Assembly: GCA_023248155.1 (NCBI GenBank)
Contig: JAHFFE010000001.1
Location: 212,873 to 276,872, forward strand
DNA: 64,000 nucleotides
From: Candidatus Omnitrophota bacterium
GTDB lineage: Bacteria; Omnitrophota; Gorgyraeia; 1-14-0-20-64-10
Direction: 5' to 3'
The notes under the pieces were generated by a model. It ran no database searches. It was given only the letters and a program-made list of their open reading frames with translations, and was not told the DNA's origin. Positions 1,501 through 60,773 of the stretch are shown in pieces. How positions within the stretch are numbered: position 1 is the stretch's first letter; every line of letters starts with the position of its first letter. Made by a program: the position numbers and the translations under genes.

Positions 1501-1529
1501 TTCAAATATAAGATTTTATTAGGTATACT
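1501..1529 (+). promoter_or_regulatory. Putative sigma70-like promoter (TTCAAA-N17-TATACT) for the giant secreted protein, with a very short leader
   Basis: -35-like TTCAAA 1501-1506, 17-nt spacer, -10-like TATACT 1524-1529, ATG at 1542; the same GTATACT element recurs upstream of six other genes in the window. Confidence 0.4.
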
Positions 1530-1541
1530 TACCTTATATCG

Positions 1542-26170: not shown

Positions 26171-26193
26171 TTTCAAAATCAGATAGGTATACT
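26165..26193 (+). promoter_or_regulatory. Putative promoter (TTGTAA-N17-TATACT) giving a leaderless transcript for the pseudopilin gene
   Basis: TATACT 26188-26193, only 6 nt before ATG 26200; -35-like TTGTAA overlaps the upstream stop codon. Confidence 0.4.
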
Positions 26194-26199
26194 TAAATT

Positions 26200-26736
26200 A
26201 TGAGGCAGACTTCTTCATTCAAGCGGCGCGGGCAGTCCGGTGTTTCGCTGCTGGAGTTGATTGTCGCCACGGCGATCGTCGGCATTGTCAGTTTAGCTGT
26301 CGCTACGATCTACACCACTGCCAACCGCTACATGCTTCAGGATTTCAATTCCTCTAATGCGCAGAGCGAAGCTTCGTTCGCGCTGGAGCATATCAAGAAA
26401 TTTGTGCAGTTGGCCACCGCGATTGACAATGCGACTCTGCCGGTTGGCGGAAATTCAAACGCGCTGCAGTTTACCTGGACGAATCGAGAACCTCCCAGCA
26501 CCGGCGCATTGGTTACGCGCACTTCCCGCTATGAAATCCAGGCCGGGAATTTGGTTTTTATACAAGATACTACGGTGGGTGCCGCGGAACAATTGGCGAG
26601 GGGAGTCTCGGCCATTGAGTTTACGCGTCCGTTGGCCGGAAGCATCGCGGTTGATTTGACCGTTAATGTCAACGCGGTTACCGGCACCCGGCAGCAGCGG
26701 CTTCAAACCACGGTGAATCCTCGAGGCGTGGCATAA
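26200..26736 (+). CDS. Prepilin-type N-terminal cleavage/methylation domain protein (type IV pilin / pseudopilin)
   Basis: Class III signal: KRRGQSG|VSLLELIVATAIVGIVSLAV with Glu at +5. Confidence 0.8.
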   Translation: MRQTSSFKRRGQSGVSLLELIVATAIVGIVSLAVATIYTTANRYMLQDFNSSNAQSEASFALEHIKKFVQLATAIDNATLPVGGNSNALQFTWTNREPPSTGALVTRTSRYEIQAGNLVFIQDTTVGAAEQLARGVSAIEFTRPLAGSIAVDLTVNVNAVTGTRQQRLQTTVNPRGVA

Positions 26737-26750
26737 AAGGAGAAAATAAT

Positions 26751-27281
26751 ATGCTTTCTACGCGCACATCGGAGCGCGGATCAGCGCTGGTGATTGCGAT
26801 GGCGGCCGCGGTGATTGTCTCGATCATCGTGGCGGTGGTGATGAATCTTTCCATCCGCCGGTTTGAACTGTCCGCGCAGCGCACCGACCACGAAGTGGCC
26901 AAGATGAGCAGTGAGGCGGGCTTGCAATATGTCTTCTCCCGGCTGGCCATCGATGACGCTGTTTTCGGAGCTGCGGTTCGGCTTAAAAGAACTTCGCTGG
27001 GGGCGGCAGCTGTTCCGTTGAATAACGCCGCCGCTGAATATGTGGTCACCTGTGACACGGCGCTGCCTGGGGGGTCCGATGAGGTGGATCAGCGCCTGCA
27101 TGTCGGCGCTAAGATCGATACGCAGGGCCCAGCCAGCCCGACGAACGGCCAATATGTCGGCGGCAAGCATGTGACGATTCGCGTACGGTTTTTGACGGCG
27201 AACGACTTTACGGCAAATCCGACTCTGGATGCGGCCCGGCCTTACCGGGTGAGGGTCGATACCAATTTCGCGGAGGGTTAA
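26751..27281 (+). CDS. PilX/GspK-like minor pseudopilin (N-terminal hydrophobic helix, no Glu+5)
   Basis: SERGSALVIAMAAAVIVSIIVAVVMNL N-terminal segment; position between two prepilin genes. Confidence 0.55.
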   Translation: MLSTRTSERGSALVIAMAAAVIVSIIVAVVMNLSIRRFELSAQRTDHEVAKMSSEAGLQYVFSRLAIDDAVFGAAVRLKRTSLGAAAVPLNNAAAEYVVTCDTALPGGSDEVDQRLHVGAKIDTQGPASPTNGQYVGGKHVTIRVRFLTANDFTANPTLDAARPYRVRVDTNFAEG

Positions 27282-27285
27282 ACCG

Positions 27286-27858
27286 ATGGGATCGCGCGAG
27301 AATCAAGAGGGCGTTTCGCTGCTGGAAGTGCTGATTTCCATGGTGATCATTACGATGGTGGCCGGCGGAATCATCACCGCGATGATCCAGAGCCGCCGCG
27401 TGACGATCCGTTCTTCGTCGGAACTCTCCACCGCGGGCCTGGTTTCGGAAGTTTCGGAAGCGCTGCGCTCGGCCGTCAACGGGCCGATTACCACCGGCCC
27501 ATTTACCGGATTTGATTTGACGAATCCTGGGATTTTTGCCGATGCCAATATGCAAAACCGTCCGGCCGGCGCTACCGCCGTTAACTCATTAATTCTGCCG
27601 GCTGATTTTAGAGATAAATTCCAAACCAGTGCCGGCACCGCTGCGACGATTGCCGGACATGGAGACGGGCGCTTGGTGGTGGTGGAGAACGCGCCAGTTG
27701 ACAACAACCCCGCCAACGGAACGATTGACGCGGCCGAGCTGGCTGCCGTCGATCTCGACGGAGACGGGCAGGCCGGCATCGATTTTGACAATGACGGCAT
27801 CACCGATTTGCGGCGCGTCCGCGTGAAAGTGAAATTTACCTCCCCGACATCCAGCTGA
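27286..27858 (+). CDS. Prepilin-type N-terminal cleavage/methylation domain protein (minor pilin)
   Basis: NQEG|VSLLEVLISMVIITMVAGGIITA with Glu at +5. Confidence 0.75.
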   Translation: MGSRENQEGVSLLEVLISMVIITMVAGGIITAMIQSRRVTIRSSSELSTAGLVSEVSEALRSAVNGPITTGPFTGFDLTNPGIFADANMQNRPAGATAVNSLILPADFRDKFQTSAGTAATIAGHGDGRLVVVENAPVDNNPANGTIDAAELAAVDLDGDGQAGIDFDNDGITDLRRVRVKVKFTSPTSS

Positions 27859-32332: not shown

Positions 32333-32338
32333 TATACT
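32333..32338 (+). promoter_or_regulatory. GTATACT -10-like element upstream of the first gene of the fibre cluster
   Basis: TGTATACT 32331-32338, 36 nt before ATG 32375, SD GGAGG in between. Confidence 0.35.
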
Positions 32339-32374
32339 TATTTTTAGGGGGTCACTTTCTCACGGAGGTGTCTC

Positions 32375-34069
32375 ATGAAGCACAGTGTCGTTATTCCTCT
32401 GCTTGTCCTTGGAATTTTCGCCAACTATGCCTGGGCGGAAACCATCGAACTGGTCACTTATTATCCGACATCATCGAATGCCGGCGATCAACATCTCACT
32501 AGTTTAACCGTCGGCAATGCTTATCTAAACACGACACTGGCCGCCGGGCAGGCCTTGATCCAGGCCAGTTTGGGGATTGGTCCCGGGTTTGCGAATAACG
32601 AGCCGGCGGCTCCGACGATGCTGCAAGTGCAGGGTGTCGATGCTCAGGATTCAACAGCTCTATTTTTACCCGGCGCTGGAGGAACGATGAGCGTGGGGAT
32701 TGGCACAACGCCGGTTCTTGGAAGCGCTCTGGATGTTACCGGCGGAGACTTGTTTGTCCGGCAGACGGCCGGATCTGGAAACCATGTTCGGATCCGGGCT
32801 CCCTCCGATGCGAATACGGCCATTGAACTGCGCTCGGAAACGGCCGGCGGAAATCCGTACATTGATTTTGCTAATGACGCGGCAACCGATTTTGATATGC
32901 GCATTCAGTTAACCGGCAACGATGAGTTGCGCATTGACGGCGGGGCTCTTCAGGTGCGTCGGGAAGGGGGAGTCGATCAAACCGGCCAGCTGGCCCGGTA
33001 CACAAATGACGCGCAGCCGACCTCGCTATCTCTGCTGAAGGGCAGGAACACAGCAGCGGTCCCTTTCCGTCCTTCCCTTAATGATGGGTTGGGAATGATT
33101 CGTTTTCAGGGGGTTAATGTGGTTGGGCAGAATTATGACGGGGCCACGATTCAGGCTATTGCGTCGGCGAACTGGACCAATGCATCCGCGCCGGCCGATA
33201 TGGTTTTTTCCACCACGCCGTCTGGCGCCAACGGATCCGCGGAACGGATGCGGATTACGGATGACGGCCGAGTTTTGATTGGAACAACGGTTGTTCCCCC
33301 GACCGCGCCGACTACGCTGCTTGTGGCCCGGCGCGATGCCGATGAAATGGTGATGATGCGTGTCGAAAATCAGAATAATTCCGCGAACGCCGCCGCCCGC
33401 GTGTTTGCGGTTTCCCAGCAGGCCGCCACGCCAATCTCAATTGGAATGGATGCCTTCTCCCAGAATTTTAACACGACCACTTCATTAGGTGCTGCTGTTC
33501 CTGGGAATACGCTAATTGCTACCTTTGCCACTTTTGGGGCGATGGCTGCCAACCTGGGCAACCTGTTTATCGCGTCACGCGGACCCAACCAACGGATTGC
33601 ATTCCATACAGGAAATCTTGCTGTTGATGCGACCACCGAACGAATGCGGATTACCAACACCGGTCTTGTCGGGATTAATATCACAAATCCTACCTTCCGT
33701 TTACAATTACCCAACCTCGCTGTTGATTCAACGGGGCGCGGGCGCGCGAACGCATGGACAACCTACTCCTCCATTCGATGGAAAGAAAACATTACCTCAA
33801 TTGACCACCCCCTGGATAAGATTCAGGAACTTCGCGGTGTTTATTTTAATTGGAAAAAAGAACAAGGAGGCGTCCGGGATATTGGATTAATTGCCGAAGA
33901 AGTTGGCAAAATAATTCCGGAGGTTGTTTCTTATGAAGAGAACGGTAAAGATGCCAGTGGTATTACCTATGACCGATTGGTGGCTCTTTTAGTAGAGGGA
34001 ATCAAAGAGCTCAAGGTTGAGAATGATGCACTGAAGAAAAGAATTGATGATTTGGAGAAAAAATCATGA
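32375..34069 (+). CDS. Secreted fibre-like protein, paralog family (type-A N-term) with C-terminal intramolecular-chaperone (peptidase S74, endosialidase-chaperone-like) domain
   Basis: Signal peptide + AETIELVTYYPTS; C-terminus SSIRWKENITSIDHPLDKIQELRGVYFNWKKEQ...IGLIAEEV...YDRLVALLVEGIKELK...coiled coil matches the IMC/S74 domain of phage tail spikes. Confidence 0.85.
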   Translation: MKHSVVIPLLVLGIFANYAWAETIELVTYYPTSSNAGDQHLTSLTVGNAYLNTTLAAGQALIQASLGIGPGFANNEPAAPTMLQVQGVDAQDSTALFLPGAGGTMSVGIGTTPVLGSALDVTGGDLFVRQTAGSGNHVRIRAPSDANTAIELRSETAGGNPYIDFANDAATDFDMRIQLTGNDELRIDGGALQVRREGGVDQTGQLARYTNDAQPTSLSLLKGRNTAAVPFRPSLNDGLGMIRFQGVNVVGQNYDGATIQAIASANWTNASAPADMVFSTTPSGANGSAERMRITDDGRVLIGTTVVPPTAPTTLLVARRDADEMVMMRVENQNNSANAAARVFAVSQQAATPISIGMDAFSQNFNTTTSLGAAVPGNTLIATFATFGAMAANLGNLFIASRGPNQRIAFHTGNLAVDATTERMRITNTGLVGINITNPTFRLQLPNLAVDSTGRGRANAWTTYSSIRWKENITSIDHPLDKIQELRGVYFNWKKEQGGVRDIGLIAEEVGKIIPEVVSYEENGKDASGITYDRLVALLVEGIKELKVENDALKKRIDDLEKKS

Positions 34070-36918: not shown

Positions 36919-38274
36919 TTATTTCGTCTGGCCGGTGAATGTGAAATCGCGGATCAGCATGGCCGGCGCTACAACCGAACTAAATCCTTGCGCCGGGTCG
37001 GCCACGAGCCGCCGTTCTTTCGAGAGCGCGATCACCTGAGAAAATGCTTTTAAGACCGGCTGCGTGAACCGCAGTGTTTTCGCGGCGCCTACCACCTTGC
37101 CTTTCTCGACGATGAAAGTTCCGTCGCGCGTCAGACCCGTCATCAGCGCTTCCCGCGTATCGAGAAGTCCGCTGACATAATGGAACCGGGTGATCCAGAG
37201 CCCCCGGTCCATTTTTTTCAGCATCTCGGCGCGCGGTGTTTTGCCCGGGTCCACCAGCAAATGCGTGGCGATCGGTCCTTCCGCTTCGTCATAGGGCAGC
37301 GCGTGGCCGGTCGAGGGTTGATGGTACAGTTTGCCGTAATGGCTGTCGTAGACCAGCCGCTGCGCCCGGCCTTTCTCGATCAAGCCGACATTTTTTCGGG
37401 GGACCCCTTCGAAATCAAACGGCATCGAGAGACAAGCCGGATCGGCCGCGTCGTCGCGGATCGTGATGTTGTCGCCCATGATTTTGTCGCCGATCCGTCC
37501 TGCCATGAAACTTGATTTCTCGTAAAATTGTTTGGCGCCAAAACCGATAAAACTGAGCCACTCCACCAATTCCGCCACCGCCTCCGGTTCGATCAGCACC
37601 GTATATTTCCCGAGCGGGATCTTTTTTTGATTCCGGTTGCGCCGGCAATGATCGCTGGCCCGCTTGAGCAGTTCATCGGCATCCAGCGTTTCGGAGTCGC
37701 GGTACGATTGTGCCGCGAACCCGGATGATTTTCCGGAAGTCGCAACCAGGCGCAATCCTCCTGCGGTAAAAGGCTGATAGACAGCGAGTCCTCCTGATCC
37801 GACGACGGCCAGTTCGCTTTCTCCTGCGGTCGAGGATCCTGCCAGTTCCAGCCCGGTTTTTTCGGCGGTCAGCCAGAGATTTTTGAGAAGAGTAAGCCGT
37901 TCTTTCGGCTGCTGTTGGGCTGTTTGCGCGAAATGCGTTTGAAGCACAGGCAGAGGTTTTTTCAACGGATTGGTTTGGAATGACGCTGCCGGTGATTTGC
38001 CGGATAGTTTCGCGATTGCCAGCGCCGAATCAACGGCGCGGCGCAGAGCCTCTTTCGTCAGCGAAGAACAGGTAGCCACGCCGACGCGGCCATGCCAGCT
38101 GGTTTTTACCCAGACGGTAATATCCTGCTCAGCAAAGTTCTGATGAATCTTTCCGCTGGAGAACCGGAATATCGTTTGCTGTGAATGCTGGCAGGCGATC
38201 AGCGTCTGGTCGGCCTTCGAGTAACGCGCCGCCTGCTTCAATTCTGAAATCAGTCTTATTTTTCCGATCAGCAT
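36919..38274 (-). CDS. pmbA: TldD/PmbA-family metalloprotease (PmbA/TldE-like)
   Basis: 451 aa TldD/PmbA family, paired with tldD immediately upstream. Confidence 0.8.
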   Translation of the reverse strand: MLIGKIRLISELKQAARYSKADQTLIACQHSQQTIFRFSSGKIHQNFAEQDITVWVKTSWHGRVGVATCSSLTKEALRRAVDSALAIAKLSGKSPAASFQTNPLKKPLPVLQTHFAQTAQQQPKERLTLLKNLWLTAEKTGLELAGSSTAGESELAVVGSGGLAVYQPFTAGGLRLVATSGKSSGFAAQSYRDSETLDADELLKRASDHCRRNRNQKKIPLGKYTVLIEPEAVAELVEWLSFIGFGAKQFYEKSSFMAGRIGDKIMGDNITIRDDAADPACLSMPFDFEGVPRKNVGLIEKGRAQRLVYDSHYGKLYHQPSTGHALPYDEAEGPIATHLLVDPGKTPRAEMLKKMDRGLWITRFHYVSGLLDTREALMTGLTRDGTFIVEKGKVVGAAKTLRFTQPVLKAFSQVIALSKERRLVADPAQGFSSVVAPAMLIRDFTFTGQTK

Positions 38275-39722
38275 CAGCCGACCTGCACTTTCTCAAAGCG
38301 GGCCGGGGAAGCGCCATGGCCCACATGCATCACCTGGATCGGTTCTCCCTTGGCGCAGTTGGGAACGCCGTAGAGCCGCCATTCTTCTTTGCCGGTAATG
38401 CCGCTGCACGAGTTCCAGAATTCCGGCGTGATGCCGGTATAAACCGGATTTTTCAACGCCTGTCCCAATTTTCCGTTGCGGATCTCCCAGCCGATTTCGG
38501 TTCCGAACTGAAAGTTCAGCCGTTTATCGTCGATCGACCAGCTTTTGTTGGTCGCCAGTAAAATCCCTTTTTTCGTGTCGCCAATCAGGTCATCCAGCGT
38601 GCCGGTTCCGGGATCGAGGCTTACATTGGTCATCCGCACGATCGGCACGGCGTTCCATCCATCGGCGCGCATCGCTCCGGTTGAATGGCTGCCGATTTGC
38701 GCGGCGGTTTCCCTCGAGCTGAGATAGTTGACGAACCGGCCGTTCTGAATAATCGGCACGCGCTGGGCAGGCACACCCTCATCGTCGTAGCCGAATGTGC
38801 CGCAGCCTTTCGGCAGTGTGGCGTCGGCGGTAATATTAACGAGCCGGTTTCCGTAGCGGTAATGTCCCAGCGTGTCGGGCGTCAGAAAACTGCCGCCTGC
38901 GAATGAAAGTTCCATTCCCAGTGCGCGGTCCAGTTCGGTTGGATGCCCGCATGACTCATGCACCTGCAGAATCAGCTGATCCGGCATTAAAATCACGGTG
39001 GTTTTTCCGGAAGGGCATTCTTTGGCGCGCAGCAATGTGACCGCTTCCTGGCGCACCCGTTTTGCTTCGCCGACAAAATCGAGTGCTTTTACATATTCAT
39101 AACCGGCCTGCGCCAGCGAACAGGAATTTGCCGTCGGGAATGACCGTTTTTGCATCTCATTGCCGAGCACGGCGGTGGCTTCAATCATGCCGCCCGATTC
39201 GGTGATCAGCTGTTCGATCCAGGCCCCTTCGGTCGAGCAAAACAGTTTCTCGGTTTTATGGAATTCCAGTTTCGCGATCGCGCTGGCGATCTGCGGATTA
39301 TCCTTAAGCACCTGGCAGGTCCAGAGCAGGTAATCCAGTTTGCGCTGCAGTGGCACACGGAACGGGTCGATCTCCAAAGGAGTTTCGTAACGGCCGCGCG
39401 CCGGTTTCATCGGTCTTAAATGGGCCATTGGCGCGGTGGTCAGTGCTACGGCGCGCGCCATTTCGATGGCCCGGTCGGCGGTCTGCTTGAGTCCGCGCCG
39501 GTTAAAATGACAGGACGACGCGTGCCCCCAGGCCCCGTGGTCAAGTACGCGGATGAAAACACCTTCGCTGGCGCTCTGGCTGATATGCTGCGGCTGACCG
39601 TTTTGCACCACCAGCTCCTCTTTCAGCGCGTGGACAAAACGGAGATCTCCGTAACGGATGCCGCGCCGTTTGAGATAGGAAATAGTCTCGGAAAACAGGT
39701 TTTTGGGTTTGGAAGGAACCAT
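38274..39722 (-). CDS. tldD: TldD-family metalloprotease
   Basis: HESCGHPTELD zinc-binding motif; 482 aa. Confidence 0.85.
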   Translation of the reverse strand: MVPSKPKNLFSETISYLKRRGIRYGDLRFVHALKEELVVQNGQPQHISQSASEGVFIRVLDHGAWGHASSCHFNRRGLKQTADRAIEMARAVALTTAPMAHLRPMKPARGRYETPLEIDPFRVPLQRKLDYLLWTCQVLKDNPQIASAIAKLEFHKTEKLFCSTEGAWIEQLITESGGMIEATAVLGNEMQKRSFPTANSCSLAQAGYEYVKALDFVGEAKRVRQEAVTLLRAKECPSGKTTVILMPDQLILQVHESCGHPTELDRALGMELSFAGGSFLTPDTLGHYRYGNRLVNITADATLPKGCGTFGYDDEGVPAQRVPIIQNGRFVNYLSSRETAAQIGSHSTGAMRADGWNAVPIVRMTNVSLDPGTGTLDDLIGDTKKGILLATNKSWSIDDKRLNFQFGTEIGWEIRNGKLGQALKNPVYTGITPEFWNSCSGITGKEEWRLYGVPNCAKGEPIQVMHVGHGASPARFEKVQVG

Positions 39723-39780: not shown

Positions 39781-39786
39781 TATACT
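39781..39786 (+). promoter_or_regulatory. GTATACT -10-like element upstream of fibre gene 39817
   Basis: GTATACT 39780-39786, then SD AGGAGG and ATG 39817. Confidence 0.35.
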
Positions 39787-39816
39787 TATTTTATAAATTC
39801 ACAGGAGGTGTTTTTT

Positions 39817-47287: not shown

Positions 47288-50746
<3,459 letters not shown>

Positions 50747-50754
50747 TTTTCGAG

Positions 50755-50760
50755 TATACT
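50755..50760 (+). promoter_or_regulatory. GTATACT -10-like element upstream of fibre gene 50779
   Basis: GAGTATACT then 18 nt to ATG. Confidence 0.3.
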
Positions 50761-50778
50761 TTTGAATAGGCAAGAACG

Positions 50779-52377
50779 ATGAAAAATCCAATTGTAAAAA
50801 ATAAAACTAACCGCATCTTATTTACGCTGTTGTTTTTGGGATTAATCGCCACGAGTGTATCTGCCGATACAGTTGAGCTGGTGACTTATTATCCGACCGA
50901 GTCCAACGGCCAGTTTGACCGCAACCATGCCCGGCGTTCGACAGTGGGGTCAGCCTATTCACCCGATACGATTACCGATGCCGCTGTCCCCGATGGGACG
51001 CTGCTGGTTTCGGAGAGGCTTGGAATTGGGATAACCGCGCCGCAATTCCCACTCGATATTTACCGCAGTGCTGATGAGGCCTATCTGCGCGTGATGGGCG
51101 TTGGCAACGGTTTGGCCCCGGAAAACTTTGCTGGGATCGAGTTGGACAGCGATCTTCCGGTCAACGGTGTTCCCGATTACAAATGGCAGCTGGTGCATAA
51201 ACGGGGCGGCGCCGGCGGGGAGAACGATTTCCACATTACTTTTTACGATCCAACTATCCCGGCCTGGCGGGTATGGCTGGCTATTCGGAAAAACGGCAAT
51301 GTCGGCATTGGCAACGTACCGTTCCCGGATGAAAAATTGCAGGTGAACGGCAATATCCGGATGCCTAACACCTTTGTCGACGGACTGGGTGTGGCCACGG
51401 CCGGCGTGATCTACAGCGACACGACGCGGTTTATTCATAACTTCGGTTCGAACAATACATTCATGGGTGTGGAATCCGGCAACTTTACGACGGCCGGAAC
51501 CGGGTTTAATTCCGGCTATGGCCAGCGTACACTGATGAACGTGACCACCGGGTTTTTTAACGCGGCGGTGGGTGCTGGATCACTCACTTCGAATACCGTT
51601 GGCTCCGACAATACAGCGGTTGGCACCAGTTCGCTAACCTCCAACAACACCGGTAATAATAATGTGGCGGTCGGTTATCAGGCGCTGTTGAGCAATATCA
51701 GCGGCAGCAACAATGTGGCGGTTGGAACTCAGGCCGGCGGCAACGCCGGGGGCAACCAGAACATTTTTATCGGTGTTCAGGCCGGTTTGAACGAAGCCGG
51801 CAACGACAAGCTGTACATTGAAAACTCCAGCTCAGCCAACCCATTAATCTACGGTGATTTTTCCACCGATACGGTCCGGATCAACAATCATTTAGGAATA
51901 GGCACCAGTGTCGTGGGTGGCACGAATGCGCTGGCGATTGCCAATGGAATCGAGCCGGCTACCAACCCTGCCGGCCAGATTCAGCTGTTTGCCAAAAATG
52001 TTTCCGGCACATCAAAACTGTGGGTGATTGATGGAGCCGGTTTTTCGTCAACGATTTCACCGCATAACTTCTCACTGATTCCATCGGGCGCCAGCGAGCC
52101 GCTGGCGTGGGCATTTTATTCGGAACGCGCCGGCCATGCCGTTAATGTCGATATGCTGCGCGCCATCCGCGTCCTTGAAAATTTATCCGGCGAGCAGCTG
52201 GTTTATCTAAAAAATCTTCGCACCCATCAAGACGAAAGTTCCCGTTTAACCAGCCCGGTTGTTCCCTCGCTTGAAAAAGAAATTCAACAGCTGAAAGCCG
52301 ACAACGAAAAACTGCAGAAGCAGGTTGATGACCTTAAAAGATCAGTCGACGCGTTGGCGCGAAACTCCCGCCGGTAA
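50779..52377 (+). CDS. Secreted fibre-like protein, divergent paralog with C-terminal coiled coil
   Basis: ...SVSA|DTVELVTYYPTESNGQ...; NRFIHNFGSNN and NTAVG/NTTG repeats; C-term EKEIQQLKADNEKLQKQVDDLKRSVDAL. Confidence 0.8.
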   Translation: MKNPIVKNKTNRILFTLLFLGLIATSVSADTVELVTYYPTESNGQFDRNHARRSTVGSAYSPDTITDAAVPDGTLLVSERLGIGITAPQFPLDIYRSADEAYLRVMGVGNGLAPENFAGIELDSDLPVNGVPDYKWQLVHKRGGAGGENDFHITFYDPTIPAWRVWLAIRKNGNVGIGNVPFPDEKLQVNGNIRMPNTFVDGLGVATAGVIYSDTTRFIHNFGSNNTFMGVESGNFTTAGTGFNSGYGQRTLMNVTTGFFNAAVGAGSLTSNTVGSDNTAVGTSSLTSNNTGNNNVAVGYQALLSNISGSNNVAVGTQAGGNAGGNQNIFIGVQAGLNEAGNDKLYIENSSSANPLIYGDFSTDTVRINNHLGIGTSVVGGTNALAIANGIEPATNPAGQIQLFAKNVSGTSKLWVIDGAGFSSTISPHNFSLIPSGASEPLAWAFYSERAGHAVNVDMLRAIRVLENLSGEQLVYLKNLRTHQDESSRLTSPVVPSLEKEIQQLKADNEKLQKQVDDLKRSVDALARNSRR

Positions 52378-52383
52378 GCAATA

Positions 52384-53085
52384 GTGAGTAAGGAAAAATT
52401 CGTCCACCGTTTGTTTGATACAATCACTCCGCGCTATGACCTATTCAACCGCGTCGGCAGTCTCGGCATGGATCACAGCTGGCGGAGAAAAACAATCCAG
52501 GCGCTTCAACTGAAACCGGAAATGCGCGTACTTGATTTAGCCAGCGGCACCGGTGATTTGGCGCGCGACTGCGCGGCTGAGTTAGCGCCGCTGGGGAAAG
52601 TAGTCGCTTGTGATCTTTCTCTGCAGATGCTTTCACGGGCCGTCAAGCGGCTGGCGGTTTTTCCGCCGGCGCGCTGGCACGTCAGCTACGCGCAGGGAAG
52701 GGCCGAAAACCTGCCGTTTAACCCAGCCACTTTTGACGCCGCCACTATGGCGTTTGCTCTGCGCAATGTTTCCGATTTGGATGCCACTTTTGGCGAATAC
52801 CATCGTACGATGCGTCCCGGCGCTCATTTGGCATTGCTGGAGTTCGGCCGGCCAACCAATTTTTTCGTGCGCGCGGGCCACTGGCTCTGGCTCTCAACCG
52901 CTATTCCTCTGTTTGGTTTTTTAACGACCGGCTTGTTCTGGCCGTTCCTTTATTTGCGCCGATCAATACTGCAATTTATGCCGCCGGAGCAGGTGGTTAA
53001 AAAACTGCAAAACGCCGGTTTTGGCGAAGTCTCCGCCACTCGCTTAAGCGGCGGGATTGTGGTTCTCTACCAGGCTATTCGTTAA
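52384..53085 (+). CDS. menG: Demethylmenaquinone / ubiquinone-menaquinone C-methyltransferase (UbiE/MenG family)
   Basis: FDTITPRYDLFNRVGSLGMDHSWRRK and VLDLASGTGDLA SAM-binding motif. Confidence 0.85.
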   Translation: MSKEKFVHRLFDTITPRYDLFNRVGSLGMDHSWRRKTIQALQLKPEMRVLDLASGTGDLARDCAAELAPLGKVVACDLSLQMLSRAVKRLAVFPPARWHVSYAQGRAENLPFNPATFDAATMAFALRNVSDLDATFGEYHRTMRPGAHLALLEFGRPTNFFVRAGHWLWLSTAIPLFGFLTTGLFWPFLYLRRSILQFMPPEQVVKKLQNAGFGEVSATRLSGGIVVLYQAIR

Positions 53086-53106
53086 CAAAAATAACCAATT
53101 TTATGG

Positions 53107-53112
53107 CATACT
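53107..53112 (+). promoter_or_regulatory. CATACT -10-like element 7 nt before ATG 53120 (leaderless-type); shares ATACTT(A)CCTTATAT with the 1524 element
   Basis: GCATACTTCCTTAT-ATG compared with GTATACTTACCTTATATCG-ATG at 1523. Confidence 0.35.
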
Positions 53113-53119
53113 TCCTTAT

Positions 53120-55864
53120 ATGAGATCCAATAACCGCCTAACAGGGCGATTTTTATTTGCCCGAATTTTAAGCGCTTTGTTGATCGTTAGCATTGCGCTG
53201 CCGCCTTCGTCTGTCTACGCCTTGCGTCCGCTCGCGGGCCGCGAATCCGGGATGGAAGAAAACCTTACGAACAAATTGCGTCCTGTCACTGGGCAGGAGG
53301 AACGGATCGTGGTACGCATCAATCCGGTGACGGAAGCTCCGGAGTGGCGCCTGGAAACGGAGTTCCGCGTTTCTCCTGAATCACAAAGCATCCGTGATTT
53401 GTTAAGCCAGCCGAATCCATCTTCTGCCGATTGGTATCGTCATGATCCGAAGGAGAAGCTGGATCGTTTGGCGGAGCTGTTTCAGGCCGGATTTGATTAC
53501 TATGCTCGCTGGATTCCTTTGTCCGGAGGAGCCCTCGTTTATTATGATGCAAGCCCACTGCTGGCTTATCTGAAGCAAGAATTCCAATGGGCCGCTTCGA
53601 CGGAAACAACCCAGCTCAATCGCATGCAATATACGCACCTGGTGAACACAATAGTCACTCAGCTGTTTCATCCGAACCGGCGTTCGCTGCTCTCTTTCCC
53701 GGATGCAAACGACCACTCGCGCGTCATTGAAAAAGATTTGACGGAAGATTGGCGGGCAATCCCTTACCTGGATGGACGAATCCCTGTTTGGGAAGCGGCT
53801 TCCAAGCCGGGTGAGCGCAATCCCGGATTTTTCACGGTGGAGGGGTGGCACCAAGGCCCGTTTGCGGTGCACGGGTCTCATTCGGATCCGTATTGGATGC
53901 AGGTTCCGTTGGAGGAATATCCGAAGCGGTTAGTTCAACCCATTGCAGCATTGTTTACTCGGCTGAGGAATTCTCCGGCAGATTTCAGGCGCTATTTTGG
54001 AACATTGACCACTCAGTTAGAAGAAAGAGCTCACGCGGAGGACGAGGTGTGGGCGTATCGGTTTCACGGAAGCGTTTTTCCATCCACCCAGTATACAGAC
54101 CATCTTATTGCAGATGCGATTCTCCGCCCGAATTCTAGGGCTGATCGGTTATGGACGAGTCAAAAACAAGCCCACTTAAGAAACGGAGAATTCTTTGATT
54201 CGGCCGGCAATTTTATAGAATTTTCCGGACAATTGAAACGGCTGATCCGGGTGATCGAAGCGGTCTACGCTGAAAAACCGGAACCAGAGGCTGATCCCTG
54301 GGCGTTGGCACTCTTTTTGGAATACGCAATCGACCAGTATGAGAATGGCGTCAAAGCGGCGAAAGGAACATGGACGCCCTATCCGCGTGAGATTTCTCAG
54401 TGGTTTATAAGCCTTTTGGTTGAGCAAGGTCTTCCAAGGGAAGTTCTGGGAACTGGCAGAAAATTTCAAGACGGGTTATGGAACGAACTCAATACGCATC
54501 AATCGGGCGAAGCAGCGATTTCCGGCCGCAAGGCGCTGGCTTGGGCGAAGAATATGCAGCGGTCTTTCTATATAACGGAGGAAGAGCGAATAGATCTTTT
54601 AAATCAGGGGCCCCCCGTTGCGGCCGGACAGGAGGAGAAGCCGGAGGAATTCCCAACGGAGCACGACTCGAAATTCTTTGAAAAGCTGGGGGAACCGCAG
54701 TGGGGTTTCGAACCCAAAGAATGGGCGGGGCTCTGGTATCTGCTTGACGGAAAAGTGCCGCAAAGTCTGGACGGTACGCTGGATGAATTGAATCATGGAA
54801 TCAGACTCCACGCGGATTCAAAGAATTTCTGGGGATCTAAAGACGCGGAGTTCGCACAGAAATTGATACACAAACTATACGACCGGATTCGGAACCAATA
54901 TGGACTTGAATGGAATGATTGGCGTTTATTCTTTGATCTGACGAATGGAAATATTCTGGCCGATTCACAGAGGTTAAGCGTTGTCCTTGACGTGATGATC
55001 TCAAGAAAAACACGGTTTGTTTCTGAGACCCCGCTTACCCCAATTGAATTAACCATGGTCCATTCGTTGCGCGATAGGCTTCAGCAGTCTGAACCGCTGC
55101 CGATAGATCCGAGAATGCGGGATTTCCCGGCTGTTTCTACGGAAAAACAGGTCGCGATGGGGAATTTTGCCAATTTTATTATAGCCGTTACGCTTTTAGG
55201 CGCGGGGTGGTTTTACGCGCGTCAGGCCCAGAATGGAGGTGGAGTCGTCCAGCCGGATAACGCGCCGGCGCCGGCTGTTATAAAACCGCGACAACGACAG
55301 TCGGTTCCAGCCGAATATTTTCGTTTTAAGTGGGAAGGCGAGGGGCCGATTGCCGAGGTGGATGGAGAACGGGTTGATTTCAACGACTGGGATAAATTGG
55401 GCGAGGCGCTTTCTCAGGAACAGGTAGATCTCTTTTTGCGGGAGCAGGAAGGGGCCGAGAGCTGGCTGGTGCCCGTAGACGCGGCGCTGCCGATTAATCG
55501 GGCGATCCATGTTTTTGACCAGGTGGGGATTCCTTCTCAACAGCTGCCGCAGAATCTGAACTATTTTAATTTAAGCCAGGATGCGGCCGCGGAAGTGACG
55601 CCCGATTTGCTGGCGCAGGGCATTAAAGACGGCGATGTTGTGATTCTTCGCGCCGATCAGGTAACGCCGGAAGGGGCCAAGAACCTGATTCCGGAAGGGA
55701 TTAAAGCGCGCGTGGTTTTGTTAACGCCGCTCATGCTTAAGCAACTATCGGCCCGGCAGTTGCTGTTCGTGGCGACTCAGCTTGATCCGGGTGAAACGCT
55801 GTATATCCAGCACCTCTCTTCCGTCACTCTTGAAAGCCAGCGCTACCTGCTGATTGCCGCCTAG
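53120..55864 (+). CDS. Giant secreted/membrane protein 2 (915 aa), paralogous N-terminus to the 1542 protein, with two (A/T)GQEE(R/K) motifs and an internal TM helix
   Basis: MRSNNRLTGRFLFARILSALLIVSIALPPSSVYALRPLAGRES...TGQEER aligns with ITGRLWALILVIALALPNPALALRPTGLEES...AGQEER of the first protein; second motif AAGQEEKPEEF; TM FANFIIAVTLLGAGWFYA. Confidence 0.8.
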   Translation: MRSNNRLTGRFLFARILSALLIVSIALPPSSVYALRPLAGRESGMEENLTNKLRPVTGQEERIVVRINPVTEAPEWRLETEFRVSPESQSIRDLLSQPNPSSADWYRHDPKEKLDRLAELFQAGFDYYARWIPLSGGALVYYDASPLLAYLKQEFQWAASTETTQLNRMQYTHLVNTIVTQLFHPNRRSLLSFPDANDHSRVIEKDLTEDWRAIPYLDGRIPVWEAASKPGERNPGFFTVEGWHQGPFAVHGSHSDPYWMQVPLEEYPKRLVQPIAALFTRLRNSPADFRRYFGTLTTQLEERAHAEDEVWAYRFHGSVFPSTQYTDHLIADAILRPNSRADRLWTSQKQAHLRNGEFFDSAGNFIEFSGQLKRLIRVIEAVYAEKPEPEADPWALALFLEYAIDQYENGVKAAKGTWTPYPREISQWFISLLVEQGLPREVLGTGRKFQDGLWNELNTHQSGEAAISGRKALAWAKNMQRSFYITEEERIDLLNQGPPVAAGQEEKPEEFPTEHDSKFFEKLGEPQWGFEPKEWAGLWYLLDGKVPQSLDGTLDELNHGIRLHADSKNFWGSKDAEFAQKLIHKLYDRIRNQYGLEWNDWRLFFDLTNGNILADSQRLSVVLDVMISRKTRFVSETPLTPIELTMVHSLRDRLQQSEPLPIDPRMRDFPAVSTEKQVAMGNFANFIIAVTLLGAGWFYARQAQNGGGVVQPDNAPAPAVIKPRQRQSVPAEYFRFKWEGEGPIAEVDGERVDFNDWDKLGEALSQEQVDLFLREQEGAESWLVPVDAALPINRAIHVFDQVGIPSQQLPQNLNYFNLSQDAAAEVTPDLLAQGIKDGDVVILRADQVTPEGAKNLIPEGIKARVVLLTPLMLKQLSARQLLFVATQLDPGETLYIQHLSSVTLESQRYLLIAA

Positions 55865-57335: not shown

Positions 57336-58844
57336 ATGAGTCAGATTTCCCGGAAAGTTATCTATCCAGCTATCTTCTTCGCGATTTTTTTGGCCGCGTC
57401 GACTGTTTTCGCGGAGACCGTGGAGATTGTCACCTATTTTCCGACTACCGGCGGCAATAACGAACATGTGAATGATTTAACGGTAGGGCCGGGTTTTTTG
57501 GGCGAAAACCCCGCCAATGGCGTAGCACTGATTGAAACCCGGCTCGGGATTGGCACCAATGATCCACAGCAACAGCTGCATATCACGGGCAACCTAAGGA
57601 TTCCATCGACCACCGCTGTGGGCGGAGTTCCTTCCGGCGGTGTTATTTTTTCTGACACAACCCGGTTTATTCACCGTTTTGGGAGCGGCAATTTCTTCGC
57701 GGGGACCGCCGCGGGCAATTTCACGCTGACCGGTTCCTCGAATATCGGGATAGGCACGAATGCGATGCAGAGCCTGACGAACGGAATTCAAAATGTCGCG
57801 GTGGGCTCTCGCGCCATGGAACTTAATACCAGCGGCCAGAGGAATTCGGCGTTTGGGATGGAGAGTCTGAATAATAATACGACGGGCGGTTTGAACACGG
57901 CGCTGGGGCATAATACGCTTTTTTTTAATCAGACCGGATTTAATAACACCGCGGTAGGCTATCAGGCTTTGCTGAACACGACGGGAAGCGATAACGTGGC
58001 TGTGGGCCAAAACGCCGGATCGGCTCTGTTGGCGAATGCGAACACGACCGGATCAGGCAATACGTTTATAGGAACTCGATCGGGTTCCGGGGTGGCCGCG
58101 CAATTGACCAACGCGACCGCGCTTGGATTTGAAGCGCTGGTCTCGGCCAGCAACGCGCTGGTGCTGGGCGGCACTGGCGCCAACGCGGTGAGCGTAGGGA
58201 TTGGAACTGAAACACCGCAGGCGACATTGGATGTCACTTCCGATGGCGGAACGATTCTGGTGCCTCGAAAAAGCACGGCCGGTGATCCGGCCGTAGGCGT
58301 CAACGGCATGATCTACTACAACGCCAACGCGCAGCAGTTCCGTTTTCATCAAAATGGGGCATGGCAGTCTCTTGATGGAGGATGGAGGCTGATTTTCCGG
58401 GATGACTTTCAAGCCAATGCCAACGGATGGGCTCCAGCAACGAGGACCAATATTGGAGGGGCCACGATCCTGGGTGGGTTTAGTACCGCAGGCAACGGAA
58501 CGACTTTAACAAGGAATTTTGATCTTACCGGTATTGCCCACACTCAGATTAAAGTTGAACTGGATTATTATGCCATTGACAGCTGGGACGGTGAATTTGG
58601 GTTTGTCTTCGCCGCGGGCGCGGCGGGTAGTTCCAGAAATATATGGGCCGAACGAATCAATCAGTTCGACCCCGGACGGATCAACTTCGGTGGGGCAGCC
58701 AACCGGACAGACGGTGTTTACCATGCTCTGTTAACCGGCTCGCATTCCACTAATACGCTGACTGTATCCGCGGGATGCACCTTGGATCAGGCGAGCAACG
58801 ACGAATCCTTTGGAATAGACAATGTGGAGGTTTGGGTCCGATAG
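57336..58844 (+). CDS. Secreted fibre-like protein, paralog family (type-B N-term)
   Basis: ...TVFA|ETVEIVTYFPTTGGNNEHVNDLTVGPGFLGENP; ~85% aa identity over the first ~290 aa with the 34066 product, divergent C-terminus. Confidence 0.85.
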   Translation: MSQISRKVIYPAIFFAIFLAASTVFAETVEIVTYFPTTGGNNEHVNDLTVGPGFLGENPANGVALIETRLGIGTNDPQQQLHITGNLRIPSTTAVGGVPSGGVIFSDTTRFIHRFGSGNFFAGTAAGNFTLTGSSNIGIGTNAMQSLTNGIQNVAVGSRAMELNTSGQRNSAFGMESLNNNTTGGLNTALGHNTLFFNQTGFNNTAVGYQALLNTTGSDNVAVGQNAGSALLANANTTGSGNTFIGTRSGSGVAAQLTNATALGFEALVSASNALVLGGTGANAVSVGIGTETPQATLDVTSDGGTILVPRKSTAGDPAVGVNGMIYYNANAQQFRFHQNGAWQSLDGGWRLIFRDDFQANANGWAPATRTNIGGATILGGFSTAGNGTTLTRNFDLTGIAHTQIKVELDYYAIDSWDGEFGFVFAAGAAGSSRNIWAERINQFDPGRINFGGAANRTDGVYHALLTGSHSTNTLTVSAGCTLDQASNDESFGIDNVEVWVR

Positions 58845-58865: not shown

Positions 58866-60773
58866 ATGGCAAAAACTCGCGCCGGTAAATATCCTGTTCT
58901 TTTTGTTGTTGCTTTGATCGGTTTAATTGCCGGGTATGCGTTCGCGGAAACCGTTGAATTGGTGACTTATTACCCGAGCAGCGGCGGAGGCGGCACCGAC
59001 CCGCAAGTGAATTCGATTCGGGTGGGAAGCGGCTACGCCGGGAGCGCGGTTCCGGCCAACGGAGAGGTGCTTATCGAAGGGAACATCGAGTTGCCTGCTA
59101 CGACCGCGACCGCGGGTGTTATCTTCTCTGGCCCCAACCGGTTCATCCATAATTTCGGAACCGACAATTTCTTTGCTGGAGTTAACGCCGGCAATTTCAC
59201 AATGACGGGTGCCGATAATGTCGGGGTTGGGGCGAATTCACTTTTTTCAAACACCACAGGCCGCGACAACACCGCGGTCGGTTTCAACTCGCTAAGGGCG
59301 AATACCATAGGAGCCCAAAACACAGCCATAGGGCAAGAGTCTCTGTTGGCAAACACCGTTGGTACTGGCAACACGGCGGTAGGACAGGAGTCTCTTAAGG
59401 CAAATACGACCGGAAATGCCAACACGGCGATGGGAGAAAATTCTCTGGCGGACAACACGGGCGGAAACAACAACACAGCGGCAGGAGATCATTCTCTGCA
59501 GCGAAACAGGACCGGAAGCGGTAACACGGCGGTAGGACAGGAATCTCTGCAGGAGAACACAACCGGTAGCAACAACACGGCGGTTGGAGTCAGCGCCCTC
59601 AACGCCAACACGACTGCCATTGCGAATACCGCCGTGGGAAGTCGCGCGTTGATGGCCAACACGACCGGCACCGGCAACACGGCGCTGGGGGTTGGCGCTT
59701 TGCAAGCCAACACGCTTGGGAATAATAATACGGCGCTGGGGGTTAACACTTTAGAAGCTAACACGACTGCCATTGCGAATACCGCCGTGGGAAGTCGCGC
59801 GTTGATGGCCAACACGACCGGTACCGTTAACACGGCCGTGGGGGTCGGCGCTTTGGAAATCAACACGACCGGCAGCTGGAACACCGCGGTGGGGGTTAAT
59901 GCGCTTACGAGTAACAATCCAACCCTGGCGACGAATGGGTTCCGGAATACGGCCGTCGGTTCGAGCGCCCTGCAAGACAACACGACCGGTTATCAGAACA
60001 CCGCGGTTGGGTTTAACGTTTTGCCGGCCACCACGACCGGTTATCAGAATACCGCGGTCGGGTCTGGGGCTATGCCGGCCACTACAACCGGTTTTCGGAA
60101 CATCGCCATTGGCAACAACGCCATGCCTAACAATGTGGGAGGCGCTTCGAATATTGCTATTGGCGATTCCTCACTTTCGGGTAATGTGGGCGGCAGCCTC
60201 AATACAGTGGTTGGGCATGAAGCCGGAGTGACTGTAAACAATCTTACTCATGCCACCGCCATTGGCGCCGACTCGAGGGTGTCTGCCAGCAATTGTATTG
60301 TTCTTGGTACAAACACAGATACCGTTTGTATTGGTTTGAATGCGCGTACCAATGCCACTTATAGACTCCAGGTCAACGGTATTGCCGCTAAGAATGGGGG
60401 AGGAAGCTGGACGAACTCCACTTCCGATGCCAGGCTTAAAGAAAACATCAGGCCTTTTAAAGATGGCTTGACTGTGCTGCAAAAGATTAATCCCGTCACC
60501 TATCAATTAAACGGCAAAGGCGGTTTACCGAAGGGCGGGGAAGACATTGGTGTTATTGCGCAGGATGTGAAAGATGTGATTCCTTATACGATTGGGACTT
60601 TCAAAGCGAAATTAAATCCTGATGATAGAGAAGAAACCGAGCTTTATAACTATAATGATACCGCATTGACCTATGTTTTGATCAATGCGGTCAAAGAACT
60701 CAAGACGGAAAACGACCAGCTGCGCCAAGATTTGAACCAGCTGCGGGAAGAAGTTGCCCAGCTTAAAAAATAA
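58866..60773 (+). CDS. Secreted fibre-like protein, paralog family (type-B N-term) with long NTAVG-repeat shaft and C-terminal intramolecular-chaperone (peptidase S74-like) domain
   Basis: ...GYAFA|ETVELVTYYPSSGGGGTDPQVNSIRVG; >25 tandem ~14-aa NTAVG/NTTG repeats; C-term SDARLKENIRPFKDGLTVLQKINPVTYQLNG...IGVIAQDVKDVIPY...coiled coil. Confidence 0.85.
   Translation: MAKTRAGKYPVLFVVALIGLIAGYAFAETVELVTYYPSSGGGGTDPQVNSIRVGSGYAGSAVPANGEVLIEGNIELPATTATAGVIFSGPNRFIHNFGTDNFFAGVNAGNFTMTGADNVGVGANSLFSNTTGRDNTAVGFNSLRANTIGAQNTAIGQESLLANTVGTGNTAVGQESLKANTTGNANTAMGENSLADNTGGNNNTAAGDHSLQRNRTGSGNTAVGQESLQENTTGSNNTAVGVSALNANTTAIANTAVGSRALMANTTGTGNTALGVGALQANTLGNNNTALGVNTLEANTTAIANTAVGSRALMANTTGTVNTAVGVGALEINTTGSWNTAVGVNALTSNNPTLATNGFRNTAVGSSALQDNTTGYQNTAVGFNVLPATTTGYQNTAVGSGAMPATTTGFRNIAIGNNAMPNNVGGASNIAIGDSSLSGNVGGSLNTVVGHEAGVTVNNLTHATAIGADSRVSASNCIVLGTNTDTVCIGLNARTNATYRLQVNGIAAKNGGGSWTNSTSDARLKENIRPFKDGLTVLQKINPVTYQLNGKGGLPKGGEDIGVIAQDVKDVIPYTIGTFKAKLNPDDREETELYNYNDTALTYVLINAVKELKTENDQLRQDLNQLREEVAQLKK

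Follow-up and report, generated by a model that had tools for sequence, protein, structure and literature searches.

Apparently undescribed mosaic proteins of Candidatus Omnitrophota with one type of export leader and a five-residue tag between modules

Two genes of a Candidatus Omnitrophota bacterium raise the question of what relates two exported proteins that begin alike, carry the same short acidic peptide and are otherwise dissimilar. Both genes lie in the stretch of 64,000 nucleotides (nt) analyzed here, hereafter the window (contig JAHFFE010000001.1, positions 212,873 to 276,872, forward strand): p2, our main subject, is the gene at 53120-55864 (+ strand), encoding 914 amino acids (aa), and p1 is the gene at 1542-7091 (+ strand), encoding 1849 aa. 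The initial annotation described p2 as a second giant secreted protein that is paralogous to p1 at its N-terminus. The two are not whole-gene paralogues: what is common to both is only a leader cassette of ~55 aa and a five-residue peptide, here called the tag, that stands at the junctions between modules. The p2 protein belongs to a rare, lineage-restricted and apparently undescribed class of modular mosaic exported proteins, for which the nearest genomes are metagenome-assembled genomes (MAGs) titled Candidatus Omnitrophota.

The features of p2, all of them on the + strand, are the following:
53120-55864: p2 gene, 914 aa plus stop; predicted exported mosaic protein encoded between menG/ubiE and ubiD
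53120-53221 (aa 1-34): predicted signal peptide with a basic n-region, the h-region FLFARILSALLIVSIAL and the c-region PPSSVYA, followed by LRP
53222-53302 (aa 35-61): leader tail, LRP...SGMEE...LRPVTGQEE
53246-53260 (aa 43-47): SGMEE tag within the leader tail
53288-53302 (aa 57-61): first junction tag, TGQEE
53303-54622 (aa 62-501): domain A, an orphan two-lobed domain with an alpha/beta half and a helical half
54623-54637 (aa 502-506): second junction tag, AGQEE, of low confidence in the AlphaFold 2 (AF2) model
54638-55150 (aa 507-677): domain B, an orphan module of which protein P0003 has a shorter version
55151-55219 (aa 678-700): predicted transmembrane (TM) helix, VAMGNFANFIIAVTLLGAGWFYA, from Kyte-Doolittle scans, with a borderline score
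55337-55861 (aa 740-914): C-terminal domain, alpha/beta, ending in ...RYLLIAA

The reading frame of p2 is open from TTG 53057, where it overlaps the end of the upstream gene, to the stop codon at 55862-55864. ATG 53120 is the only plausible start, because it yields a canonical Sec signal peptide (MRSNNRLTGRFLFARILSALLIVSIALPPSSVYA/LRP..., the slash marking the cleavage site). The signal peptide was assigned on the basis of hydrophobicity, the leader alignment A2 and a hidden Markov model (HMM) of the leader, and its cleavage site was inferred from the AxA rule. A protein identical to p2 is recorded as P0001. No match to p2 was found in Pfam or NCBIfam at E<=0.1, nor in a sequence search of the PDB, in agreement with the earlier statement that the protein beyond its leader is unrelated to p1 or to any named family. 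The putative helix at aa 678-700 is followed by an Arg, and a Kyte-Doolittle scan shows a hydrophobic stretch at the equivalent place in P0003. This helix makes anchoring in the membrane after export more probable for p2 than free secretion, so that "secreted" needs rewording, and "giant" is an overstatement for 914 aa.

The p1 protein is built in the same manner (all features on the + strand):
1542-7091: p1 gene, 1849 aa, with the same leader and junction tags as p2
1641-1655 (TGLEE), 1707-1721, 2253-2267, 3513-3527, 4995-5009, 6009-6023 (AGQEK) and 6552-6566: tags of p1
aa ~1160-1450 of p1: WD40 module, between consecutive tags
aa 1621-1658 of p1: FHA module, between consecutive tags

A pairwise BLASTP comparison of p2 with p1 yields one marginal match (55 aa, 35% identity, E=0.016), other matches being short and centred on AGQEE. 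The initial annotation had proposed that its claim of N-terminal likeness should fall if no significant alignment extended beyond the signal peptide, and this comparison comes close to that outcome, but stronger tests show the likeness to be real. When an HMM made from 11 leaders of other organisms, with p1, p2 and P0003 left out, was scored against the 905 stop-to-stop segments of the window, the E-values were 3e-16 for p2, 6e-9 for p1 and 0.3 for the best of the other segments. The likeness covers the ~55-aa leader only, so that "paralogous" in the sense of gene duplication does not apply. The tag is the second common trait. In the six-frame translation of the 64 kb, GQEE occurs seven times, five in p1, two in p2 and none elsewhere, confirming that AGQEE punctuates both proteins; to these are added one AGQEK and one TGLEE in p1, and one SGMEE in p2. 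The single internal TM helix that had been placed at a similar relative position in both proteins is found in p2 as one stretch, at 75% of the protein length, whereas the clear TM segment of p1 (aa 750-770) lies at 41%; p1 also has a weaker stretch preceded by RR at aa ~255-275. A C-terminal domain common to p1 and p2, suggested by ends that look alike by eye (GD[LV][IV]ILR..., ...Y.L[IL].A), was rejected as unsupported, with BLASTP E-values of 0.04-0.13 and an hhalign probability of 0.5%, and an HMM of the p2 C-terminal domain matches only P0002, P0003, P0016 and P0013, not p1. A search with p1 returned only WD40 proteins, and no relatives of its other modules.

Relatives of p2 are few. A word-indexed search of 5.8 billion proteins returned p2 itself and one relative only, and an exhaustive phmmer search of 1.84 billion representative proteins gave 16 matches at E<=0.001. 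All 16 are punctuated by tags (AGLEE, AGAEE or AGQEE, more rarely AGMEE or AGVEE), and those with intact N-termini start with a signal peptide, A/LRP and then GxEE (alignment A2). The consensus leader is thus a Sec-type signal peptide ending in A/LRP, a spacer of 0-20 aa and GxEE, and in the leader alignment the first copy of the tag always comes directly after the signal-peptide cleavage site. The p2 protein has the three traits that define the class, i.e., the leader, at least two tags at module boundaries and homology breakpoints at the tags. A leader-profile search of 5.8 billion sequences gave only two short matches and could not widen the family because the profile is too short. A scan of genome contigs with p2 gave no match, and in a scan of metagenome contigs the C-terminal domain had no match and domain A matched only the contigs of P0013 and P0011. 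A literature search for AGLEE retrieved no relevant paper, and neither the tag nor the ALRP leader is mentioned in bioRxiv 10.1101/2023.11.21.568195, bioRxiv 10.64898/2026.06.07.730766 or PMC10066038.

The tag has the form [S/A/T]-[A/G]-G-[L/Q/A/M/V]-E-E-[K/R] and is located in Pro-rich, apparently disordered linkers of low AlphaFold confidence. The logo of 86 instances reads [S/A/T]-A(69%)-G-[L 49%, Q 20%, A 20%]-E-E-[R/K], with Pro enriched 3-4 residues upstream and nothing else conserved around it; the position before the Gly was not constrained by the search pattern, yet it is Ala in 69% of the cases. There are up to 11 tags per protein. The p2 protein has three, while ~0.02 would be expected by chance in 914 aa, as estimated from amino-acid frequencies. 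A census with the pattern [AGST]G[LQAMV]EE over 972 kb from 63 sources, most of them from other phyla, showed that the open reading frames (ORFs) with at least two tags are family members only, bar one: a two-tag ORF in the Anaerolineae locus L056, which was discarded as a spurious antisense frame of low complexity. An allele of P0013 (L063 1798-5166; JGI Ga0209515_10020872) carries AAWLEE instead of AAGLEE at one junction, which is either a natural variant lacking the invariant Gly or a sequencing error.

Both the residue x and the codons of the tag are informative. Within a genome x is uniform, and it differs between genomes. Seven of 8 tags in the window encode their Gly by GGG (background 14-24%); L002 has GGG in all 3 of its tags and L005 has GGT in 3 of 4. 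This uniformity is a pointer to copying of tags at the DNA level. Nucleotide conservation of the tag as proof of a DNA element was considered and rejected: the use of GCC for Ala in all tags is mostly codon-pair bias, 68% of Ala-Gly pairs having GCC, and after accounting for this bias only the Gly codon stays unusual. Genomes differ in the codons of the tag, yet the peptide itself is kept even between lineages whose domain A sequences have just 20-25% identity, and this preservation of five residues argues for selection on the peptide.

That the tags mark the edges of modules is most evident for domain A. An iterative HMM started from aa 57-520 of p2 found 14 copies of this ~440-aa domain in 13 proteins, and in nearly all of them the envelope of the match runs from one tag to the next; the p2 tags at aa 57-61 and 502-506 flank the domain exactly as in 12 homologues. 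In P0008, a HATPase_c domain ends at aa 1741 and a tag starts at aa 1745, and in P0009 a WD40 domain ends at aa 1628, where a tag is located. The only long low-confidence end stretches of the AF2 model of domain A are the two tag regions, with a predicted local distance difference test (pLDDT) score below 50. P0006 has a single module and consists of signal peptide, tag, domain A, second tag and a short tail; since it keeps both tags, these are part of the cassette also where no second module has to be joined. The database entry of P0006 (487 aa) was called 30 codons short, as an upstream ATG at nt 732 adds the signal peptide (L065 732-2285), and a ParE/Phd toxin-antitoxin pair is found directly downstream of this gene on the other strand.

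The same positions are breakpoints of homology. The p2 protein is 55% identical to P0002 up to aa 507, the end of AGQEEK, where the similarity stops, and 80% identity resumes at aa 763. With P0003, p2 shares a leader that is ~86% identical through SGMEE, and the two are unrelated after it until homology restarts exactly at AGQEE (p2 aa 502-595 versus P0003 aa 215-310; 32% identity, E=2e-12, BLASTP), the last 200 residues being 84% identical. Thus, p2, P0002 and P0003 have the leader and the C-terminal domain in common and differ in their middles. These comparisons show that the tags are cassette boundaries and that modules have been exchanged at them.

Whole genes vary in a similar way. The backbone bioDA-menG-ubiD-ubiA-ubiX is conserved in relatives, and the slot between menG and ubiD that p2 occupies is empty in L007 and L050 and holds genes of 1125 and 1160 aa in L005 and L006. 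These slot genes have the leader and tags of p2 and different modules; that of L006 encodes an SLT lytic-transglycosylase domain, a region which the L005 gene shares as judged by eye. The P0009 gene lies between fabG and smc. Conserved presence between menG and ubiD, which would be expected of a true member of the menaquinone/ubiquinone operon, is therefore not observed for p2. In these loci, genes for exported proteins occupy slots of variable content within housekeeping operons that are conserved.

Regarding the modules themselves, domain A contains an invariant motif, the helix E-E-x-x-H-A-x-D-x-x-W-A (aa 301-312), together with PYLxGR, IRPxS..DR..W and ELSGQ (alignment A1). The E-E-x-x-H-A-x-D part looks like an active or metal-binding site. 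The AF2 model of domain A has a pLDDT of 80.9 and a predicted template modelling (pTM) score of 0.85, and found no significant match in the PDB or BFVD, the best Foldseek hit being dipeptidyl peptidase III (DPP III) at E=0.44 and TM-score 0.32. DPP III (family M49) resembles domain A in having two lobes, alpha/beta and helical, and a helix that contains E-E, but domain A lacks the M49 zinc-binding motifs (HExxGH and EExR/KAE/D) and has one invariant His only. An assignment to DPP III or to another known enzyme was rejected, as there is no significant fold or sequence match in the PDB or Pfam. Domain B is common to p2 and P0003 only. The C-terminal domain is 80-85% identical in P0002 and P0003 and is also present in P0016 and P0013; its AF2 model is alpha/beta (pLDDT 76.5) and has no significant PDB match, and a known sorting domain was discarded as an identity for it, as Foldseek reached no better than E=0.1, with PilT and VirB11 (N-terminal domains). 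Both domain A and the C-terminal domain appear to be folds without a solved relative. The C-termini of the family often consist of a hydrophobic strand and Ala (IAA, LMA, TAA, EAA, RAA, LFA, VFA), as seen on comparing p2, p1, P0002, P0003, P0005, P0008, P0009, P0012, L005 5830-9204 and L007 1092-3548; a shared C-terminal signal had no statistical support in this comparison. In P0012 the C-terminus falls five residues into a tag (…SGLEEAA), and the next gene in L066 is that of ClpX.

What, then, would the tag do? The reading that we favor, to which we give an even chance, is that p2 and its relatives are mosaic envelope proteins built from cassettes, with an export leader and with tags that act as exchange and recognition sites. 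The signal peptide of p2 would carry domains A and B across the inner membrane, the helix at aa 678-700 would anchor the protein, and the 175-aa C-terminal domain would stay in the cytoplasm. A dedicated endopeptidase, acting in trans, would recognize the tag, which for this reason would be maintained by selection on the protein; this enzyme would trim the leader and separate the modules, and those with their own Sec- or Tat-like signals (Tat, twin-arginine translocation) could then be targeted independently. The conserved tag would serve, in addition, as an in-frame junction for the exchange of cassettes by recombination. For the protease recognition site taken by itself our confidence is somewhat short of even.

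Several observations support this proposal. Besides the selection on the peptide described above, a residue x that is uniform within genomes and different between them is what would be expected from co-evolution with a reader. Signal-like segments are found behind tags: in L005, an RR motif of the Tat type, then a hydrophobic region and a lipobox ('RRLSRREVLRMAGRGLFGLLGSNLLTAC'); in L006, 'RRNFLKK...'; in p1, 'FNRRTALRTFGVLLGLPFL...TIA/Q' and 'MSRRGLLAIAFGV...'. In P0008, a K/R-rich spacer followed by a TM segment occurs three times, 9-16 aa after a tag. A second signal peptide or lipobox behind the first Sec signal peptide would be hard to use, and this favors cutting of the chain. The class also combines cytoplasmic-type modules (HATPase_c, WD40, FHA) with periplasmic-type ones (SLT).

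Other points weigh against it. Cleavage at the tags is something that we infer from sequence, and no protease has been linked to them: among the ~48 window ORFs scanned with Pfam, the only peptidases are one pair, which carries no evidence of a link to the tag:
36919-39722, - strand: TldD/PmbA metallopeptidase pair, the only peptidase genes found in the window
No neighboring gene, such as a protease or a transporter, is conserved beside the family members, which are found in unrelated housekeeping operons. Copying of junctions by recombination explains the uniformity of x and of the Gly codon equally well. P0008 can be threaded through the membrane as one uncleaved chain with all tags on one side. 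The signal peptide, TM helix and topology of p2 were derived from simple hydrophobicity rules only. Finally, P0002 and P0013 have no TM segment between domain A and the C-terminal domain, so that the membrane side of the latter is inconsistent across the family unless the modules are separated.

The same idea can be carried further. AG-x-EE may be the recognition site of a lineage-specific processing or sorting system, the proteins that bear it being cellular polyproteins of Omnitrophota that are cut into modules, from those of ~1 thousand aa (kaa) to the giants of 10-147 kaa. If true, the modules would be targeted independently of one another (Sec, Tat, lipoprotein or cytoplasmic) and the tags would double as in-frame shuffling points. 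We consider this extension unlikely.

Among the alternatives, the one that survives best takes the tag for a mere linker or for a scar left at each junction; new junctions would be copied from old ones, and the chain would remain an uncleaved, multi-domain, membrane-threaded protein. It accounts for the position of the homology breakpoints at the tags, for the uniformity of x and the Gly codon within a genome, for linkers that are disordered and Pro-rich, for the possible threading of P0008 as one chain and for the lack of a protease linked to the tag in the window. What it explains poorly is that the peptide has outlived the divergence of domain A with changing codons, which speaks of selection on the peptide and not of DNA copying alone, that P0006 keeps both tags around its single module, and that second signal peptides and a lipobox stand behind a first signal peptide, where an uncleaved chain could hardly use them. 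We regard it as a serious contender, rather unlikely on balance.

A compact acidic motif that is repeated up to 11 times per protein in disordered linkers could also be a docking or modification site. Its partner might be a metal ion, a chaperone, or a factor for sorting or for anchoring in the envelope; alternatively, it might be covalently modified. The lineage-specific x, as if co-evolving with a partner, and the first copy directly after the signal-peptide cleavage site would suit such a role. This explanation is improbable in our opinion, since it leaves the signal-like segments behind the tags unexplained, no partner was found, and no match for such a site is found in Pfam, NCBIfam or PADLOC-type knowledge.

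The codons of the two Glu residues suggest that the tag might act in the mRNA, the sequence GGN-NNG-GAG-GAG being Shine-Dalgarno-like (AGGAGG) and causing ribosome pausing or internal initiation, with the peptide as a by-product. GAG-GAG is in excess (4 of 9 window sites versus ~10% expected; 3 of 3 in L002 and 4 of 4 in L006), and the organism uses GGAGG-type sites. At the first p2 junction (window 53294-53310), AGGAGGAACGGATCGTG contains a perfect Shine-Dalgarno core, AGGAGG, 8 nt and an in-frame GTG at the start of domain A, from which translation might start internally and yield a form of p2 that lacks the signal peptide. However, four window tags and most tags of L007 have GAA-GAA and no Shine-Dalgarno-like core, the arrangement of core and spaced start codon is absent from most other junctions, and neither the conserved Ala-Gly nor the restricted x is explained, so that a general role in the mRNA is very improbable. 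Least credible of all is that p1 and p2 are two ordinary secreted paralogues with similar signal peptides and a chance recurrence of an acidic peptide, a view in keeping with their weak pairwise BLASTP match (E=0.016) but contradicted by the leader HMM, the confinement of GQEE to these genes, the 972-kb census and the tags at module edges in 16 of 16 relatives.

The initial annotation had also pointed to a promoter-like element shared by p1 and p2 immediately before the ATG. The two sites are:
53082-53121, + strand: p2 promoter-like region, TTAACA, 19 nt, CATACT (53107-53112), TCCTTAT, then ATG; no Shine-Dalgarno
1501-1539, + strand: p1 promoter-like site, TTCAAA-17-TATACT (1501-1529), overlapping the shared element ATACTTACCTTATAT (1525-1539)
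The -35 box of p2 (TTAACA) was assigned by eye and was not called by the promoter scanner because its spacer is 19 nt. The element ATACTT(A)CCTTATAT is found at 1525-1539 and 53108-53121 and, at that length, nowhere else in the window, in which sense the claim holds. Its core is of a more general nature. TATACTT occurs five times in the window (1524-1530, 26188-26194, 32333-32339, 39781-39787 and 50755-50761), always on the + strand, in intergenic regions and 6-40 nt before a start codon, often without a Shine-Dalgarno after it. The TATACT core thus looks like the general -10 box of this organism, placed for leaderless or near-leaderless mRNAs, and the element, being mostly a generic -10 hexamer, is no dedicated regulator of these two genes. 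From the end of the hexamer to the ATG there are 7-12 nt, with no Shine-Dalgarno in either gene, which implies leaderless or near-leaderless p1 and p2 mRNAs.

The position of p2 between menG and a ubiD-like gene was borne out: a UbiE/MenG-type methyltransferase gene lies 34 nt upstream (Pfam E=6.5e-45) and a UbiD gene 15 nt downstream (Pfam E=5.8e-83). The closest sequences to this UbiD, 78-82% identical, are from MAGs titled Candidatus Omnitrophota bacterium and from others automatically labelled 'uncultured Planctomycetia'. The p1 gene is directly downstream of a tRNA-Met (1340-1416). Its GC content is 0.49 and that of its third codon positions (GC3) 0.47; p2 has a GC3 of 0.55 and the neighboring housekeeping genes 0.60-0.75, those near p1 having 0.63-0.75. 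The low GC3 is consistent with recently acquired or fast-evolving cargo, but no integrase was seen. The remaining window is ordinary chromosome, with genes for enolase, the phosphotransferase system (PTS), the S-adenosylmethionine (SAM) cycle, LptF/G, tricarboxylic acid (TCA) cycle enzymes, and biotin and quinone synthesis, as well as type IV pilin-like genes and several tail-fibre-like exported proteins. A cluster at 26200-27858 comprises three small genes, of which two carry N-methylation motifs of type IV pilins. The tail-fibre-like proteins are encoded at 50779-52377, 57336-58844, 58866-60773 and 32375-34069; a Peptidase_S74 'chaperone of endosialidase' domain is present in two of them, and the N-termini of two are almost the same, a signal peptide followed by ETVE[LI]VTY[YF]PT. 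Such genes are inserted between biotin and quinone biosynthesis genes, and the insertions are absent in L003, L006 and L007. An ORF of 711 aa (48611-50746) is, from reading its sequence, an apparent fusion of dethiobiotin synthetase and a class III aminotransferase (BioA-like), and this fusion is conserved in L006, L007 and L050.

A short conserved peptide at the boundary of exchangeable modules is known from other systems. In polymorphic toxins, demarcation motifs such as 'VENN' of CdiA and 'DPxGL' of Rhs are found where the homology between alleles breaks, separating an export part from swappable cassettes, and roles in recombination and, for Rhs, in release by proteolysis have been proposed for the motif. 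By description, the AGxEE proteins resemble them in having such a peptide at the cassette boundary. The differences are that AGxEE is repeated along each protein and that, among close relatives, the middle is variable and the C-terminal domain conserved. The p2 protein has no haemagglutinin/two-partner secretion (TPS) or RHS/YD repeats and no toxin domain (Pfam and NCBIfam, E<=0.1); a variable C-terminal toxin followed by an immunity gene is not what is found, as its C-terminal domain is the most conserved block and ubiD is the next gene.

MARTX toxins are large modular toxins that are cut between their effector modules by an internal cysteine protease domain (CPD). Both they and the AGxEE proteins are arranged as beads on a string, with unstructured linkers that contain a simple determinant, and in the latter, too, cleavage is proposed to set modules free to act independently. 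Export of p1 and p2 would be by a Sec signal peptide, not by type I secretion. No RTX repeats and no CPD (Peptidase_C80) appear in the Pfam results of p1 and p2.

Protease recognition sequences also occur in ribosomal peptide precursors, where double-glycine leaders are cut by C39 peptidases and, in cyanobactins, the sites G(L/V)E(A/P)S are cut by a subtilisin-like protease and repeated before each cassette. The tag resembles these sites in its pair of small residues (A-G versus G-G or G-A) and in its G-[L/V/A]-E core, but the AGxEE proteins have a Sec signal peptide, which is hydrophobic, as their leader, and the substrates would be large folded modules. Among the ~48 window ORFs scanned, none encodes a C39 or S8 peptidase.

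The closest setting is that of the phylum itself. Omnitrophota are uncultured, probably host-dependent nanobacteria with extremely long, sequence-unique, multi-domain proteins. Judging by the titles of the nearest genomes, the AGxEE proteins come from the same phylum, and they share with the giants their unique sequences and the presence of many unrelated domains, often of cytoplasmic type, together with TM segments or signal peptides. They differ in length, with 0.9 kaa for p2 and 1.8 kaa for p1, and in the absence of dockerin, TSP3, C39 and SecA domains. Thus, p1 and p2 do not belong to the giant class, defined by at least 10,000 aa and giant-type domains, p2 having no Pfam domain and p1 only WD40 and FHA. 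The giants described so far include 'Archaeovorins', dockerin-type and multi-enzyme proteins of 10-147 kaa, C39 and S8 domains are reported as frequent in the long proteins of the phylum, and post-translational cleavage is suspected at points that are not known, which the giant-gene study calls a block on analysis (bioRxiv 10.1101/2023.11.21.568195; bioRxiv 10.64898/2026.06.07.730766; PMC10066038).

Whether long Omnitrophota proteins act as single chains or in pieces is precisely the question on which the tag bears. It offers a parsing rule that delivers units for structure prediction, candidate cleavage sites for metaproteomics and a handle on the enzyme or partner that would read it, via phylogenetic profiling, and the exchange of cassettes at defined in-frame junctions is documented. 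Compared with the systems above, p2 and its relatives are of a known kind, exported proteins of modular or polymorphic make-up in which a motif stands at the junctions; what is apparently new here is a family-specific leader combined with a five-residue module delimiter.

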